A stretch of DNA of 64,000 nucleotides from Treponemataceae bacterium (GTDB lineage Bacteria > Spirochaetota > Spirochaetia > Treponematales > Rectinemataceae). The notes beneath the pieces are model-generated. The model had not been told where the DNA came from. It was given only the letters and a program-made list of their open reading frames with translations, and did no database searches. Numbering within the stretch: position 1 is the stretch's first letter; every line of letters starts with the position of its first letter. The translations under genes and the position numbers were made by a program. The stretch spans positions 736,001 to 800,000 of the forward strand of contig CAXXVZ010000003.1 of NCBI GenBank assembly GCA_963678065.2. Direction: 5' to 3'. This document shows positions 3,008 through 9,615 of this stretch, piece by piece.

Positions 3008-3967
3008 ATGCCTGCCTCTCCGTATTTTCTGACCCACCGCAACCCTTCTGTGCGGCTTCGCGCTCTTCGTGAATTGGTCGGTGCGCCTGCAGACTCCTTT
3101 GCCCTGCGCGAGGCCATGGCTGAGATTCCCTCGCAGCCCGAAGTGCGTGCTGTCATGGACGACATGTATCCCGACGGATATTGGTTGCAGAGGAATCCGC
3201 GCACGGGAAAAGAAACCGGCGCCGGAGTGGAATACGGAGCCTACGCGAGCACGCATTACCGACTCTCGTATCTGGCCGAACTCGGCATGGACCGCTCGGA
3301 CCCGCGTGTGGATCAGGCTGCCGGAAGGTATCTGGATCTTCAGGCGGAGGATGGGGATTTCTGGATGCACATGTCCTGCCTCCTCGGCCTGAATCTCCGA
3401 ACTTTCGCCATGCTCGGCTACGGCGACGATCCGCGCGTGACCGCATCGCTCTCCCTTCTGCTTTCGACCGAGAGACCGGATGGCGGCTACCTCTGCGACA
3501 TACACGAAAAGCCGGCCCGCGGGAAATCCGGAAGAGCCCTGAAACGCCCCAAAAGTTGCTTCCGCGGTTCCGTGAAAGCCCTCCTCGGCTTCTCCTATTA
3601 TCCGAAATTTCAAGACCATCCACGAGTGCAGGCCCTCACGGAGTATTTCCTTGAGCGGGGAGGCATTTTCCGGCGCGACGATCCATCGAGCCTCGTCACA
3701 AAGGATGTAGGCTCTCCTTCCTTTCCTGTCACGTGGAGCGCCGATCTCGTGCAGGTTCTGTACGCTCTCTCTCGACTCAGGCTGGGTGCGGATCCGCGAC
3801 TCGACCGAGCATGGAATCTTCTCGATTCCATGCGGGACAGCGAGGGTTTCCTGCCCTTATCCTGGACTCCCCGGCAATCGCCGTGGAAGGTCGGCAAGCC
3901 AGGCGAGCCCTCCGACTGGCTCACTCTGTATGCGGACATTGCGCGTGCTGACCGCGGCGCTTTATAA
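3008..3967 (+). CDS. Uncharacterised prenyltransferase/squalene-cyclase-like (alpha/alpha toroid) protein
   Basis: 319 aa with QxxDGxW-like repeats (YPDGYW, QAEDGDF, RPDGGY, DSEGFL) and C-terminal GEPSDWLTLYA. Confidence 0.6.
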   Translation: MPASPYFLTHRNPSVRLRALRELVGAPADSFALREAMAEIPSQPEVRAVMDDMYPDGYWLQRNPRTGKETGAGVEYGAYASTHYRLSYLAELGMDRSDPRVDQAAGRYLDLQAEDGDFWMHMSCLLGLNLRTFAMLGYGDDPRVTASLSLLLSTERPDGGYLCDIHEKPARGKSGRALKRPKSCFRGSVKALLGFSYYPKFQDHPRVQALTEYFLERGGIFRRDDPSSLVTKDVGSPSFPVTWSADLVQVLYALSRLRLGADPRLDRAWNLLDSMRDSEGFLPLSWTPRQSPWKVGKPGEPSDWLTLYADIARADRGAL

Positions 3968-3980
3968 ACAAAAAAATCGC

Positions 3981-4036
3981 TTGCTTTTTCCCGGATCCTG
4001 CTCGATACTGATGCTGTTGGCTGGTGGTTTTACCAC
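3981..4036 (+). promoter_or_regulatory. Promoter plus FadR-type operator of the GRE operon
   Basis: TTGCTT-17 bp-GATACT followed by palindrome GTGGT-TTT-ACCAC (4024-4036), matching the FadR-subfamily TGGT-N3-ACCA pattern. Confidence 0.7.
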
Positions 4037-4055
4037 GATATTTTTTTGGAGATAG

Positions 4056-4781
4056 ATGAACAACTACATAGAACCTGTCAGGGTCCAGAGCCTGAAGGAA
4101 GCCTGCGTCGCACGTCTGGAGGAGCTGATTCTCTCAGGTGGGCTCAAAATCGGCGAACGTCTGCCCCCCGAACGCGATTTCGCCGCCCGTATCGGTGTCA
4201 GCCGCCCCGTCCTTCACGAGGCGCTGGTGGACTTGGATGCCAAGGGATTGGTGCGGATTGTTCCCCGGCGAGGGGTATTCGTCAGCGATTACCGCCGCTC
4301 CGGCTCGATGACGATGCTATCCTCCCTGCTGGCCTACCACGACGGACAGCTCGACCCTGCCTTCACCCAGAGCCTGATCGACATGCGCCTGGTTGTCGAG
4401 ACGGAGACCGCCCGTCTCGCGGCGCAAAACCGGACCGGGGAGCAGCTGACCGAGTTCCGCACCCTGCTGGACGACGAACAGCGCGCCTCGTATTGTGACC
4501 CGCAGCTTCTGACCGATCTCGACTTTTCTTTCCACCTCTCGATCGCCATCGCCTCCGGCAATCTCGTCTATCCGCTCATGATCAATTCCTTCAGGGCTGT
4601 CTACACCAGCCTCACCGGTGAGTTCTTCCGCACGTATTGCGGGACGCCGGTGGTGGATACTGTCCGGCAGTTCCACGTCCAGATAGTCGACGCTCTCGAG
4701 CGGAAAGACTCCGAGGGCGCTGTCCGCACAATGAGCGCAATCCTCAAGCATGGAGAAGCGTATCTGCGAAGCGACAAATAG
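4056..4781 (+). CDS. FadR/GntR family transcriptional regulator
   Basis: GERLPPERDFAARIGVSRPVLHEAL wHTH; FCD domain DLDFSFHLSIAIASGN. Confidence 0.93.
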   Translation: MNNYIEPVRVQSLKEACVARLEELILSGGLKIGERLPPERDFAARIGVSRPVLHEALVDLDAKGLVRIVPRRGVFVSDYRRSGSMTMLSSLLAYHDGQLDPAFTQSLIDMRLVVETETARLAAQNRTGEQLTEFRTLLDDEQRASYCDPQLLTDLDFSFHLSIAIASGNLVYPLMINSFRAVYTSLTGEFFRTYCGTPVVDTVRQFHVQIVDALERKDSEGAVRTMSAILKHGEAYLRSDK

Positions 4782-4794
4782 GAGGCGAACAGCC

Positions 4795-7311
4795 ATGGCC
4801 ACCTGTACGAGTGAGAAACCCCGTTATTCCATCAAAGAGCCCGCCACTGTTTCCCCGCGCATCCAATGGTTGCGCGATTACTATTTCCAGGGTGTGAGAC
4901 GCGCCTGGAACAATGAGTACAGCGCCTGGACCACGGGCAGCCCCTGGGACTTCCAGTACAACGAACTATCGTTTTACATAGTCCCGGAAACCTACTCCTT
5001 CCTGCAGACCTTCCGCTCTTCGTTCAGCCAGATGGCCCGCCGGGTCGAGGTGCATCCGGAATTCTGGAAGTGGAGTCTCCCCGAACGGCGAGCCTGGTTC
5101 AACCGCGAAGTCATGGTGCGCCATCTGCCCAAGGAGATTCTTCCAGGCGACCTGTTGGCCGGAGCGCGTTTCAATGTCATGACCTCGGCCTGCCTCACGG
5201 AGAAGGAAACCCGGGAGCGCGATGGCAGGATCGAAGGTCCGCGAGGCGCGCGGGCGGCGATGCTCTGGTTCCACAACCACGGTTTCGGCAACGCCGGGGC
5301 CACTTCCGGCCACCTGATCCCCGATTACGGGCGCGTTGTCCGGGAAGGCTGGAAATCCATCCACGCCGAGATCGAAGCCGAGTACGCGGCGCTTCCGGAG
5401 CCAGATAAGCGTGGGAAAAGAGGCGGACAGCTGCGGGCGATGCTGACATCCTCCACCATGGCGAGGGATCTGGCCGCGGAGTATTCCAGGGAATGCCTCC
5501 GTCTCGCGCAGGGGCATCCCGATCCAGTCCGCAAAACCGAACTTCTCCAGATGGCCGACAATCTGGGCCGCGTGCCGTGGGAGCCGGCGCAGACGTTCTG
5601 GGAAGGTATCCAGTCGCTGTGGTTGACACACATGCTGGTCATGTCCGACGAGAATTACCCCGGCCCGGGCGACTCCTTCGGACGACTCGACCAATACCTG
5701 CACCCTGTCTGGGAAAAGTCCCTCCGCGAGGGCATGGACCCGGAGTTCGGCAAGGAAATCCTGAAATGCTTCTGGATCCACTGCAACACCGCATACGACG
5801 GCATGATCCGCACCGGCGGCAACCAGGGCATCACCGCCGGGTACGGGCAGCTGTTTACGATCTCCGGCATGGGCCCTGGCGGGAGCGACATGACCAACGA
5901 CTTCACGTATGTCCTCCTGGACGTGATCGACGGAATGTCGCCCATCCTCGAGCCGAAGCCCAACGTGCGGCTGCACCGCGCCTCGCCCGAGAAGCTGCTC
6001 GACCGGGTAGTGGAGATGATTGCCGCCAGCCAGGGCGCGCCTTTCCTGCTCAATTTCGACGAGCGCTCGATGGCCGGCCTGATGCTCGAGGCCAGACGTT
6101 CCGACGCAACCCATCTCATCGACGAAAACAACGTATTCGATTACGCTCCTGTGGGCTGCCTCGAGAACACGATGGTCGGCAACGACAGATCGGGCACCGT
6201 GGACGCCAATCTGAATCTCCTCAAGGCGGTCGAACTGACTCTGACTGGCGGCTACGATCTGGGTCCCTTCACCGATCCCTTGAGCGGAGCAACTGAAAAA
6301 CCACAACGTTGGGGCGCGGACACTGGCGACCCTTCCCGCTTCGAAACCTGGGAGCAGTTCTGGGACGCCTACGCCGCACAGACTTGCGCCATCATCCGCC
6401 GCATTGTGGACCTGTACGAACAGTCCGAGTCCATCCGGGCGCGCTTCTTTCCGACACCCTACGTCTCCTGCCTGGTGAGAGGTTGCGCCCAAAAGGGGCT
6501 GGATATCAACGAAGGCGGCGCCGAGCTCGGCTATGTCACGATCGAAGCCGTGACCTACGCCACCACGGTGGATTCCCTCCTCGCGGTCAAGTACCTGGTC
6601 TACGACGAAAAGTTCTGCACCATGCCGGAGATGCTGAAGGCGCTCGCGGACAACTGGGTCGGGCACGAAGTCCTGCAGGCCCGGGCCCTGCACAGAACGC
6701 CGAAATACGGGCGCGACGACGACCGGGCCGACGAGATGGGCCGCGCCGTGATGGGGCTTTGGACAGATGAAACCTGGAAGTACAGGACCAAGTCCACGGG
6801 CCGGCAGTTCCGCCCCGGCATGTTGTCCTGGAACTACTGGGTGGCCGATTCGTTCATTCTGCCCGCGAGCCCGGATGGACGTCCGCGGGGCAAGTTCCTG
6901 TCCAATGCCCTGTGCCCCTCGAACGGCGCGGACATCGCCGGTCCTACGGCGAATGTCAACTCGGTCGGCAAGGTGCTGGGCGGCAGGGTCGCCGACGGTT
7001 CAGGCGATTGGGGGGACTACGTGAACCTCCTGCCCAACGGAGGCAGCCACACGATGACCTTCAATCCATCCATCCTGCGCGATCCGGAGCACCGCGGGAA
7101 GTTCAAGGCTTTCCTGAAGGGGTACATCGAGAATGGAGGCTCGGCGCTTCAGATCAATATGATCGACGCCGACATGCTGCGGGATGCCCAGAAGCACCCG
7201 GAGGACTACCGGCATCTCCTGGTTCGCGTCACCGGCTACAACGCCTACTTCACGTCCATCGGACGCGAACTTCAGAATGAGATCATCGCCCGCGAGAGTC
7301 ACCGGATATGA
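4795..7311 (+). CDS. Glycyl radical enzyme (PFL superfamily), substrate unknown
   Basis: Gly loop LLVRVTGYNAYF, single Cys loop VGCLE, FGRLDQYL, PKYGRDDDRAD, ASPDGR; GGAGG RBS before ATG 4795. Confidence 0.95.
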   Translation: MATCTSEKPRYSIKEPATVSPRIQWLRDYYFQGVRRAWNNEYSAWTTGSPWDFQYNELSFYIVPETYSFLQTFRSSFSQMARRVEVHPEFWKWSLPERRAWFNREVMVRHLPKEILPGDLLAGARFNVMTSACLTEKETRERDGRIEGPRGARAAMLWFHNHGFGNAGATSGHLIPDYGRVVREGWKSIHAEIEAEYAALPEPDKRGKRGGQLRAMLTSSTMARDLAAEYSRECLRLAQGHPDPVRKTELLQMADNLGRVPWEPAQTFWEGIQSLWLTHMLVMSDENYPGPGDSFGRLDQYLHPVWEKSLREGMDPEFGKEILKCFWIHCNTAYDGMIRTGGNQGITAGYGQLFTISGMGPGGSDMTNDFTYVLLDVIDGMSPILEPKPNVRLHRASPEKLLDRVVEMIAASQGAPFLLNFDERSMAGLMLEARRSDATHLIDENNVFDYAPVGCLENTMVGNDRSGTVDANLNLLKAVELTLTGGYDLGPFTDPLSGATEKPQRWGADTGDPSRFETWEQFWDAYAAQTCAIIRRIVDLYEQSESIRARFFPTPYVSCLVRGCAQKGLDINEGGAELGYVTIEAVTYATTVDSLLAVKYLVYDEKFCTMPEMLKALADNWVGHEVLQARALHRTPKYGRDDDRADEMGRAVMGLWTDETWKYRTKSTGRQFRPGMLSWNYWVADSFILPASPDGRPRGKFLSNALCPSNGADIAGPTANVNSVGKVLGGRVADGSGDWGDYVNLLPNGGSHTMTFNPSILRDPEHRGKFKAFLKGYIENGGSALQINMIDADMLRDAQKHPEDYRHLLVRVTGYNAYFTSIGRELQNEIIARESHRI

Positions 7312-8273
7312 AAATCGCGGGCCGCATCCTCCACCTCCAGCGTCTTTCCACCGAGGATGGCCCCGGCATACGCACCACGGTCTTCTTCAAGGGCTGCCCC
7401 CTGCGCTGCGCCTGGTGCCACAACCCGGAAAGCATCTCGCAGCGGCCTCAGGTCCAGTGGCTCGCCCTCCGCTGCATTGGCTGCGGGACCTGCCTGGAGG
7501 TCTGCCCGAACGGCTGCCTGACGATACGCGAGGATAGCCTCGTCATGGACCGCGCCCGCTGCGCCGCTTGCGGGACCTGCGTCGCCGCCTGTCCCTCCGG
7601 GGCCCTCGAGTCGCTGGGCAAGGTGGCAGACGTGGAGGAAGTGTTGGCCGAACTGGTCAAAGACCACGCCTACTACGAGAAATCCGGAGGGGGCGTGACT
7701 CTTTCAGGGGGCGAGCCGACATTCCAGCCGGATTTCGCCGAGGCGCTTCTTCGCGACCTGAAGGAGCAGGGCATTCCAACGGCCCTCGACACCTGCGGCA
7801 TGTGTTCGATCCACACTCTCGACAGGCTTCTGCCCTACACTGACCTTGTTCTGTTCGACGTCAAGCTGCTCGATCCGGCTCTCCATCAGAAAGCCACGGG
7901 TGCCTCCAACGAACAGATTCTGGAGAACCTGGCCTACCTCAGGGATTACATCCGGGGCCGGAAGCGTTCCATCGGCCTGTGGATACGCACTCCCCTCATC
8001 CCCGAAACGACCGATACCGAGGAAAACCTGTCTCTCATCGGCCGCTACCTGTTCGAGACTCTGGATGGCGATTTCGACCGCTGGGAACTCTGCGCTTTCA
8101 ACAACCTCTGCCGCGACAAGTACACTCGTCTCGGTCTCGAGTGGATGTATGCCAGGACCCCGCTCATGACGCGCGAGGCGCTGGCCCGCTGCGAACAGAT
8201 CGCTAAATCTTCCGGCCTCCGGCCGGAGCTCGTTCTGGCTACCGGCGCAACCCGGGTGGAGCAAACGCACTGA
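7308..8273 (+). CDS. Glycyl-radical enzyme activating protein (radical SAM with 2x[4Fe-4S] ferredoxin insert)
   Basis: EDGPGIRTTVFFKGCPLRCAWCHNPE, two CxxCxxCxxxCP motifs, GGGVTLSGGEP; ATGA overlap with GRE stop. Confidence 0.95.
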   Translation: MKIAGRILHLQRLSTEDGPGIRTTVFFKGCPLRCAWCHNPESISQRPQVQWLALRCIGCGTCLEVCPNGCLTIREDSLVMDRARCAACGTCVAACPSGALESLGKVADVEEVLAELVKDHAYYEKSGGGVTLSGGEPTFQPDFAEALLRDLKEQGIPTALDTCGMCSIHTLDRLLPYTDLVLFDVKLLDPALHQKATGASNEQILENLAYLRDYIRGRKRSIGLWIRTPLIPETTDTEENLSLIGRYLFETLDGDFDRWELCAFNNLCRDKYTRLGLEWMYARTPLMTREALARCEQIAKSSGLRPELVLATGATRVEQTH

Positions 8274-8289
8274 ACAGGAGTCGACCACG

Positions 8290-9153
8290 ATGAACAGACA
8301 GCTTCTGGCTACTTTTTCGGAAGAAGATATCCGGAGCACCCGACCAGAGATGAAAATCGGCATCCTGGCGACGGTCACGCCGGAAGGATTGCCGCACGTG
8401 ACGCTGCTCTCCTCGCTGATGGCCTATGCTCCGGCACAGTTGTGCTTTGGCCAGTTCGTCGAGGGAATGTCGAAGAAACACATTCTCCTCAACCCTAAAG
8501 CCGGCTTCCTCATCATGGATTTGAACAAAAACCTCTGGCGCGGCAAAGCCTCCTACACTCACTCTGCAAAAGAAGGCCCGGAATACGATCACTACAACAA
8601 CCTGCCCATGTTCCGCTACAACGCCTACTTCGGAGTCCACACTGTCCACTACATGGACCTTGTGGGGCACAGGGGCAAGTCTCCGCTGCCGATGAACCGG
8701 ATCATCTTCGCGGCTATCCAGACCTGGATTGCGCGCACGCTGGGACGCAAGGCAGGCAGACAACCCGCGCTCAATGCCTGGACGCGCGCCTTCGTGGACA
8801 GGATCGACAACCTGAAATTCCTGTCCTACGTGGATTCGGATGGCTACCCGGCGATCATCCCCGCCATCCAGACCCAGAGCCAGGACGCGCAGCATGTTCT
8901 GTTCTCCACCTCCGTCTACAAGGATGAATTGGAGGCCATTCCGCCAGGCATCCCGCTGGCGGTTTTCAGCATGGCGCTGACGATGGAAGACGTGCTTTTG
9001 CGCGGCACCTACCAGGGCATCCGCCGCGTGGGCGGGGTCAATGCCGGGGTAGTTGAAGTCGAGTGGGTCTACAACTCCATGCCGCCGGTTCCGGGACAGG
9101 TCTACCCGCCTGTGGAGTTGAGACCAGTGACATTTTCAGGCCTGAATGCGTAA
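8290..9153 (+). CDS. Tandem pyridoxamine-5'-phosphate-oxidase-like (FMN-binding split barrel) protein
   Basis: Two related units: GILATVTPEGLPHVT...KKHILLNPKAGF and KFLSYVDSDGYPAIIP; CAGGAG RBS; starts 16 bp after activase stop. Confidence 0.72.
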   Translation: MNRQLLATFSEEDIRSTRPEMKIGILATVTPEGLPHVTLLSSLMAYAPAQLCFGQFVEGMSKKHILLNPKAGFLIMDLNKNLWRGKASYTHSAKEGPEYDHYNNLPMFRYNAYFGVHTVHYMDLVGHRGKSPLPMNRIIFAAIQTWIARTLGRKAGRQPALNAWTRAFVDRIDNLKFLSYVDSDGYPAIIPAIQTQSQDAQHVLFSTSVYKDELEAIPPGIPLAVFSMALTMEDVLLRGTYQGIRRVGGVNAGVVEVEWVYNSMPPVPGQVYPPVELRPVTFSGLNA

Positions 9154-9186: not shown

Positions 9187-9615
9187 TCAGGCTTGTCGGA
9201 GGAATCGACGCTTTTTTACTAGATCGACGAGTCGGACCAGGGCGGCGAAGAAGGCGAGAACGCCGGCGTATCCGGCGACACGGCCGGCAGCTGCGGCGTT
9301 GAAGCCGCCGCGCTCTTTGCCTTCCCAGAGACCATTCCCGGCTGGCGGGCTGCGCGTCACGCCTGCAGCGTCCACGGCCTCCACAGACTTCTCAGTTCCC
9401 TCCGCATCTCGCTCCTGAAGCGTGAACTTCTCCCCGGAGTCCGGGAGCGCTGCGCCCGGCCGCGGTCTTTCCGGGCCTTGGGCCGAGGAGAGGCCGGTCA
9501 CGGCGCCAAAGCCCTGTGCCAGGCTTCCCCAATAACCTGTATAGACGCTGCATCCTAGCCCGATAGCGAGGACGATGGCGAGGATGGCATCTCTGGTTTT
9601 TCCCTTATTCCGCAT
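9187..9615 (-). CDS. Hypothetical membrane protein (two TM helices flanking a low-complexity loop)
   Basis: Hydrophobic N- and C-terminal segments; start overlaps stop of the upstream DUF4405-like gene. Confidence 0.6.
   Translation of the reverse strand: MRNKGKTRDAILAIVLAIGLGCSVYTGYWGSLAQGFGAVTGLSSAQGPERPRPGAALPDSGEKFTLQERDAEGTEKSVEAVDAAGVTRSPPAGNGLWEGKERGGFNAAAAGRVAGYAGVLAFFAALVRLVDLVKKRRFLRQA

Follow-up and report, generated by a model that had tools for sequence, protein, structure and literature searches.

The window analysed here is a 64,000-nucleotide stretch of DNA from a Treponemataceae bacterium (assembly GCA_963678065.2, contig CAXXVZ010000003.1, positions 736,001 to 800,000), and it carries an operon of four genes, which encode a transcriptional regulator with GntR and FCD domains, a glycyl radical enzyme (GRE), its radical-SAM activase, and a tandem split-barrel protein of PNPOx-like fold (Table 1). 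An earlier reading of this DNA, made from the sequence alone, had described these genes as tightly coupled, and our analyses reproduced its coordinates and spacings exactly (viz. a 13-bp gap between the regulator and the GRE, an ATGA overlap between the GRE and the activase, and a 16-bp gap between the activase and the barrel gene).

Table 1. Features of the GRE operon, numbered from the first letter of the window.
Feature	Position	Strand	Remarks
Possible promoter (TTGCTT, 17 bp, GATACT)	3981-4009	+	By eye only; not called by the promoter scan
Operator palindrome GTGGT-TTT-ACCAC (GTGGTTTTACCAC), core TGGT-N3-ACCA	4024-4036	.	20 bp 5' of the regulator start
GntR/FCD transcriptional regulator, 241 aa	4056-4781	+	GntR and FCD domains
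Glycyl radical enzyme, 838 aa from ATG 4795	4795-7311	+	His173, Cys455-x-Glu457, Gly814; aromatic, family-specific N-terminus
Radical-SAM activase with ferredoxin-like insert, 321 aa	7308-8273	+	TIGR02494, 316 bits (cut-off 174)
Tandem split-barrel (PNPOx-like fold) protein, 287 aa, predicted GRE accessory subunit	8290-9153	+	Fold match, internal repeat, complex prediction
Terminator-like hairpin 3' of the operon, weak	9194-9210	+	Scan: 4 sites vs. 3.8 expected by chance

The product of the second gene matches the GRE superfamily models PF02901 (3e-112) and PF01228 (1e-20), is accompanied by a cognate activase that passes the TIGR02494 cut-off, and yielded a structure model with a pLDDT of 88. 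All 68 family sequences have the residues His173, Cys455 (codon at 6157, in the segment GCLENT), Glu457, and Gly814 (codon at 7234, in RVTGYN), and the same holds for T813, E286, Y288, G351, W679, N680, Y681, and W682. The sequence-only reading had argued from the single Cys that the enzyme is no true PFL and had pointed to a Gly loop reading RVTGYN rather than RVA/SGY, and both observations hold (72 bits against TIGR01255, whose cut-off is 994; T813 without exception). The motif C455-L-E457, kept in all 68 sequences, is a sequence feature by which GRE eliminases and isomerases are defined in the available text of PMC13450708, and it occurs here, as had been stated, together with a long activase whose CxxxCxxC motif is joined by two CxxCxxCxxxC motifs, i.e., two extra ferredoxin motifs of the [4Fe-4S] type. 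The N-terminus is likewise rich in aromatic residues (23% of residues 20–110 vs. 9% of residues 166–838) and is specific for the family, since alignments over the first ~165 residues are confined to family members when the best 150 representatives at 50% clustering are compared. The substrate-lining segments that had been called unusual are family signatures and mostly invariant in the 68 sequences, but this does not extend to D293 (the D of GPGDSFGR), which is replaced in many of them (V in 39, D in 15, and L in 10 of the 68). Five family members (P0245, P0248, P0250, P0255, and P0261) lack the CxE motif and four of the five also lack the aligned Gly loop; judged by these losses they are apparently catalytically dead paralogues.

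Comparison with the characterised GREs separates this enzyme from each of them. It scores below every class cut-off in NCBIfam (364 vs. 678 bits for the broad PFL2-3 model, and at most 340 bits against the HypD, HpsG, HpfG, and CutC models, with cut-offs of 1000–1100), it is ~30% identical to the characterised classes, and their substrate residues are not kept. For CutC the score is 276 vs. 1050 bits (TIGR04394) and H173 aligns to the Asp of CutC, an enzyme that also has an aromatic cage for choline. HypD (trans-4-hydroxy-L-proline dehydratase; 6VXC/6VXE) is the best single-sequence PDB match (278 bits) and has equivalents of H173 and E457 in His160 and Glu436; however, the GRE reaches 340 of the 1100 bits set by NF043068, falls into a separate clade, has no P5C reductase beside it, and does not keep D278, D339, F340, Y450, and T645, the HypD residues given in the available text of PMC7077986, and the host genome has a HypD-like gene of its own. 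Assignment to the sulfonate enzymes (IslA, IseG, HpsG, and HpfG) is rejected by scores of 340 and 315 bits against NF048011 and NF048009 (cut-offs 1000) and by the loss of their Arg/Gln/Arg anchor, in which the Gln aligns to H173 and the Arg to G675. PFL2 of Archaeoglobus fulgidus (2F3O; 267 bits) has the His and an ENY segment on strand 1 in common with the GRE, but it is again ~30% identical and is without the family N-terminus. BSS, MASS, and HPAD are multi-subunit GREs, as is predicted here from a complex model; however, those three use HiPIP- or rubredoxin-like iron proteins as subunits whereas the partner here is a tandem split barrel, and the catalytic subunit here is eliminase-like (144 bits to BSS and 104 bits to HPAD; 149 vs. 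1150 bits for the HPAD model). In a FastTree phylogeny of 66 sequences, chosen from the loci, the representatives, and the GREs of the host genome itself, the family is separate from the representatives that pass the HypD or HpsG cut-offs, with a support of 1.0 at the basal fork and a long stem. By sequence, the GRE forms a family of its own apart from the named classes, which agrees with the earlier suggestion of an uncharacterised class. The host genome (G000) also encodes four other PFL-like GREs (L080–L086), one of them HypD-like (893 bits over 644 aa) and three not assigned to a class, of which two flank a sugar ABC-transporter-like cluster on C5.

A divergent B12-independent dehydratase, forming 3-hydroxypropanal from glycerol or propanal from 1,2-propanediol, is quite an unlikely identity for this enzyme. 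Glycerol dehydratase (GD) from C. butyricum (1R8W/1R9D) and propanediol dehydratase (5I2A/5I2G) share with it the GRE barrel, the Cys-x-Glu motif, and the long activase, and the equivalents of GD Cys433, His164, and Glu435 are kept, the latter two as H173 and E457; GlpK/GlpD-type genes lie near the cassette in two loci (L041 and L266), and the shared regulator type heads glycerol-3-phosphate (G3P) dehydrogenase operons, as described below. These likenesses are set against ~30% identity, a separate clade, an unaligned stretch of ~165 residues at the start of the GRE, the barrel partner, and changes at five other GD pocket positions. In a mapping that alignment gaps leave uncertain by one or two residues, the GD pocket residues H281, Y339, D447, and Y640 appear to correspond to P291, G351, V469, and L677, and GD F333 to I346, all of them smaller or non-polar. 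F333 is described in the available text of PMC7077986, and in that of PMC13450708 Glu435 and His164 form the acid/base pair of GD (section 5.6) and GD is without a listed small subunit (section 4.2). Genes of a diol pathway, whose absence the sequence-only reading had pointed out, are likewise no conserved companions of the cassette elsewhere, whether for alcohol/aldehyde dehydrogenases, a glycerol facilitator, or microcompartments.

The cassette of regulator, GRE, activase, and split-barrel genes is widespread in Chloroflexota, spirochaetes, and Desulfobacterota. A GRE relative is encoded in 265 GTDB stretches, from which 79 loci were retained. In 73 of these the GRE is followed by the barrel gene, the other six being cut off by a contig end within the gene for the GRE or the activase, and in 26 the regulator precedes the cassette. 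A search that started from the barrel gene found a family GRE beside it in 31 of 32 spirochaete loci, and 17 of 18 further barrel loci, including distant ones at 21–29% identity, also adjoin a family GRE, with the remaining locus in either set lying at a contig end. In five loci (L026, L260, L268, L270, and L271) no activase gene intervenes between the neighbouring genes for the GRE and the barrel, an arrangement that links the barrel protein with the GRE in preference to the activase. Clustering of open reading frames (ORFs) in first 80 and later 112 loci turned up no other neighbour conserved across lineages, and lineage-specific synteny was all that emerged from a Pfam scan for companion enzymes, which covered 136 of the 251 neighbour clusters. 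The view of the split-barrel protein as the only partner is upheld, as is its conservation beside GRE homologues. Among Atlas clusters, those resembling the barrel protein occur most often in Chloroflexota, Promethearchaeota, and Bacillota.

The split-barrel protein gave a weak match to PNPOx_N (E 1e-5, under the gathering score), and it was assigned to the fold by structure in its first half and by internal repetition in its second. Residues 3–135 of its model (pLDDT 90.8) match split barrels, best of all HupZ (Z 14.2, rmsd 3.2, 120 aligned), and the profile of the first half matches that of the second in hhalign with a probability of 94.8% (E 4.8e-8; reversed control 0.5%), confirming the tandem PNPOx-like arrangement. 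HupZ, swol_0183, and the Desulfovibrio FMN-binding protein, which are COG3576-type split barrels, share the fold of the first barrel (HMM E 5e-5), but they are 10–17% identical to the protein here, in which two barrels are fused and which has the family-specific motifs PMFRYNAYFG and YNxMPP. A complex prediction for GRE residues 8–718 and barrel residues 1–282 gave an ipSAE of 0.80 (runs 0.81, 0.78, and 0.80), while three controls all gave 0.00; at least 73% of contacts are common to the runs, and the partner has a pLDDT of 85 or more. The ipSAE mark is reached by 116 of 157 solved complexes and 2 of 215 mismatched pairs, counts that are only roughly valid with the alignments used here. The predicted interface places the barrel protein on the family-specific N-terminus of the GRE and comprises GRE residues 34–82, 110–117, 129, and 336–340 and, on the barrel side, the conserved residues F56, M107, Y110, N111, M232, and M264–P266 (F56, Y110, and N111 being invariant), with a barrel-side conservation above average (0.73 vs. 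0.63). The 2026 review PMC13450708, in its available text, assigns small subunits to HPAD, BSS, and MASS alone, all of them iron proteins of HiPIP- or rubredoxin-like type, and describes BSS-beta as covering a channel formed partly by the cap helix; as no split-barrel GRE subunit appears there, the prediction is unlikely to be the recall of a solved complex.

The complex model and the five adjacencies that skip the activase make it likely that the barrel protein is bound to the GRE as a subunit and does not work as a free enzyme of the pathway. It is improbable that it acts instead as a free flavoprotein, reducing the activase or an aldehyde product: the fold does match FMN-binding proteins (Z 13.2 to 3in6, rmsd 4.0, 131 aligned; Z 11.4 to 1axj), the GxSK motif is nearly invariant in the family, and the 1686 longer candidates include one activase-barrel fusion, but the contrast of 0.80 with 0.00 in the complex predictions and the five loci without an intervening activase both link the protein to the GRE, and the fusion (P0242, 624 aa) is likely a read-through of the intergenic region. 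A catalytic flavin within the bound subunit is possible. A second long frame at L257 was also considered as a fusion and proved to be none, and no F420 ligase was found in the host genome by searches whose controls gave matches.

The regulator and its operator provide a clue to the substrate. The palindrome is not significant in the window alone (one match, and at least one in 27 of 100 shuffles); across loci, however, 44 of 46 cassette regulators, that of the window included, are preceded by TGGT-N3-ACCA (shuffle mean 0.17), whereas the motif occurs in only 1 of 61 loci without an upstream regulator, four loci with too little upstream sequence having been dropped beforehand. The single exception, L092, has its regulator 3' of the cassette. 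The operator proposed by the sequence-only reading is thus real across loci, and it is likely the autorepression site of the GntR/FCD regulator. The accompanying claim that the operon is FadR-regulated stands only as regards a GntR/FCD regulator with an operator; the protein is no FadR orthologue, falling below the cut-offs for FadR (60 vs. 189 bits for NF003444 and 57 vs. 249 bits for TIGR02812), LldR, and NanR. A pattern search of 44 genomes for a wider regulon gave extra operator matches at about the control level.

The window operator is the top position weight matrix match of the host genome (28.6 bits, the site having been in the training set), and the second-best site (20.2 bits) precedes a paralogous regulator, 45% identical, which heads an operon for a GlpA-type oxidase, an FAD oxidoreductase, a DUF1667 protein, an FGGY kinase, and a flavoprotein resembling alkyl-dihydroxyacetone-phosphate (alkyl-DHAP) synthase (ADPS). 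This operon, with its paralogous regulator and the same operator core, is an uncharacterised module on the minus strand (G000:C3:2260235-2267925; L218:5235-12926). The only PDB matches of the ADPS-like flavoprotein at E<1e-20 are alkyl-DHAP synthases, and its HHH motif is kept. The host phylum (251 genomes) yielded 26 regulator matches (E<=1e-30), of which 18 lie at a cassette, one is at a contig end, two weak ones (36%) lie beside a mandelate-racemase-type gene, and five (G000, G094, G029, G173, and G279) stand at the head of GlpA/GlpD-(FGGY)-ADPS-like operons, all of which have the operator core. At one locus (L092, genome G002) the cassette and an ADPS-like operon form one continuous gene series, joined by genes for a lipid kinase and an acyltransferase.

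The ADPS-like gene (presence threshold E<=1e-60) also co-occurs with the barrel gene in three phyla: in the host phylum it is present in 27 of 29 genomes with the barrel gene vs. 62 of 221 without it (37 of the 62 from one family), in Chloroflexota in 6 of 8 vs. 19 of 193, and in the phylum of a Desulfobacterales genome in 17 of 24 (10 of 11 with close homologues) vs. 8 of 157. A control, the HypD-like gene, shows no such association (0 of 29 barrel-bearing genomes vs. 5 of 221 others). Taken together, the regulator and co-occurrence data point to a substituted glycerol as the likely substrate of the GRE, possibly from membrane ether lipids; the sequence-only reading had named no substrate.

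It is unlikely that the substrate is instead unrelated to glycerol, e.g., an amino-acid, sugar, or nucleoside derivative handled by an eliminase or isomerase, with the regulator recruited and the co-occurrence reflecting the lifestyle of sediment heterotrophs. Such an account would suit the random flanks of the cassette, the retention of CxE by isomerases as well, the 61 scored loci without an upstream regulator, and the cassette genomes that lack an ADPS-like gene (see below); however, the repetition of the ADPS-like association in three phyla and its absence for the HypD-like control speak against it, as does the lack of any conserved gene that would serve such a substrate (a transporter, kinase, or racemase), the MFS gene 5' of the GRE being confined to 10 Chloroflexota loci.

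We tentatively propose, as a possibility still short of probable on these sequence comparisons, that the operon encodes a two-subunit enzyme carrying out 1,2-elimination on O-alkylglycerols, which are ether-lipid backbones without a headgroup. In this proposal the thiyl radical on Cys455 would take a hydrogen from the carbinol carbon, Glu457 would deprotonate the hydroxyl of that carbon, and the neighbouring leaving group would receive a proton from His173. A substrate with a free 1,2-diol would give a 3-alkoxypropanal, from which the fatty alcohol could be shed by beta-elimination, whereas the alcohol would be released in one step if the ether oxygen lay next to the radical. The barrel protein is predicted to clamp an N-terminal GRE helix (residues 64–80) and residues 336–340, by alignment at the cap-helix region, and by analogy with BSS-beta it may gate or feed the channel, possibly with a bound flavin. 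The cassette would complement the kinase/G3P-dehydrogenase/ADPS-like module by taking those glycerol ethers whose C2 the module cannot oxidise (2-O-alkylated or of opposite handedness), and the aldehyde would be removed by general cellular enzymes or by the barrel subunit, because no aldehyde-handling gene is linked to the cassette.

The same two-subunit eliminase could act on another substituted glycerol or small polyol common to the kinase/dehydrogenase/ADPS-like module (viz. a monoacylglycerol, glycerol phosphate, glycerophosphodiester, or short-chain glycerol ether), which we regard as unlikely. All of the regulator and co-occurrence evidence fits such a substrate equally, as do the many invariant polar residues of the pocket. 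Alkylglycerols are favoured over it by the ether-lipid enzymes that the ADPS-like flavoprotein matches in the PDB and by two of the genomes checked, in which ADPS-like operons lie beside an Fe-alcohol dehydrogenase, or beside acyl-CoA synthetase, thiolase, and START-domain genes, as well as by the alignment of the phosphate/sulfonate-anchoring Arg of IseG to G675.

Several observations weigh against the O-alkylglycerol proposal. The invariant polar residues of the GRE (E286, Y288, Y334, D335, D470, N472, and N680) would also fit a small polar substrate, and conservation on the GRE side of the predicted interface is not above average (0.70 vs. 0.77). The paralogous regulator lies among the cassette regulators (SH-aLRT 88–94, on a long branch) in a quick and unfinished tree, regulators are often recruited for other roles, and no extra regulon sites recurred among 40 regions around operator matches, where most readable sites are intragenic. 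Of 53 cassette genomes, mostly Chloroflexota metagenome-assembled genomes of unstated completeness, 20 have no ADPS-like match and 33 have one, 13 of them at >50% identity; many of the non-matching genomes are Anaerolineae, the closest kin of the window copy, and since kin are not independent the co-occurrence counts overstate the association. The ADPS-like operon could also build or salvage ethers rather than degrade them. Its Pseudomonas counterpart is, in the available text of PMC8151288, tied to glycerolipid metabolism by annotation, and its deletion was without phenotype. That counterpart, PA3026-PA3023 of the P. aeruginosa GliR regulon, resembles the paralogue-headed operon in encoding an FAD oxidoreductase, a G3P dehydrogenase, an FGGY kinase, and a lipid kinase, a likeness in gene types; unlike the operon here, it is AraC-regulated, and the available text mentions no GRE.

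If the barrel protein is a GRE subunit, it would represent a new GRE architecture, whatever the substrate, because the available text of PMC13450708 lists only iron-protein small subunits; neither "ether" nor "pyridoxamine" occurs in that text. A literature search returned no title or abstract on this GRE family or on ether cleavage by a GRE, although subscription papers and supplements (e.g., GRE similarity-network tables) may include the cluster, and the available parts of PMC8473560 and PMC13596139 hold nothing on the family. The cassette consists of three proteins and a known operator, hence its function is a directly testable question. The enzyme AGMO needs O2. In the available text of PMC7911779 and PMC9192799 it is called the only known enzyme that cleaves alkylglycerol ethers. 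An alkylglycerol substrate would thus mean an anaerobic route of ether-lipid breakdown in sediment Anaerolineae, Dehalococcoidia, spirochaetes, and Desulfobacterota, with a bearing on carbon recycling and on the survival of lipid biomarkers. A broader and rather doubtful form of the proposal is that this widespread two-subunit GRE is an oxygen-independent ether lyase with the barrel as its lipid gate, freeing fatty or isoprenoid alcohols also from 2-O-alkyl and archaeal-type backbones; it would then be a first enzyme for anaerobic ether-lipid turnover in sediments.

The cassette of the host likely originated by transfer from Anaerolineae, as its sequence relationships suggest. The glycyl- and tyrosyl-tRNA synthetases of the window (GlyRS and TyrRS) share 69% and 60% identity with their counterparts in two Spirochaetota genomes, while two Anaerolineales lack them or have versions of 27–29% identity, so that the host is probably a spirochaete. 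The window GRE, in contrast, is 82–84% identical to Anaerolineales copies vs. 65–66% to copies in the host's own family and nests among Anaerolineae (FastTree support 0.96–0.999, rooted on L150/L151). The barrel gene is present in 3 of 40 close relatives.

Some further features were observed around the cassettes. An MFS transporter gene lies 5' of the GRE in 10 Chloroflexota loci, mostly from Dehalococcoidia (L053, L061, L065, L067, L070, L071, L074, L075, L076, and L078), and an alpha/beta hydrolase gene lies 3' on the opposite strand in loci that overlap this group. A second, unrelated GRE adjoins the cassette in four loci (L048:5993-8962, L057:1904-4873, L257:7904-9757, and L263:7647-10091), and in L048 and L057 it is 989 aa long with an N-terminal extension, for which the Pfam scan did not confirm an SCP2-like identity, and has its own activase. 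In L029 (5709-9899), a tandem, apparently degraded second whole cassette precedes the intact one, and its breaks may be sequencing errors. In the window, a 319-aa ORF (3008-3967) directly 5' of the operon has no Pfam or NCBIfam match and is not beside the cassette in the other loci searched, and positions 76-1053 encode a Rieske non-haem iron oxygenase (Rieske and VanA_C domains), which thus occurs in an organism with several oxygen-sensitive GREs.

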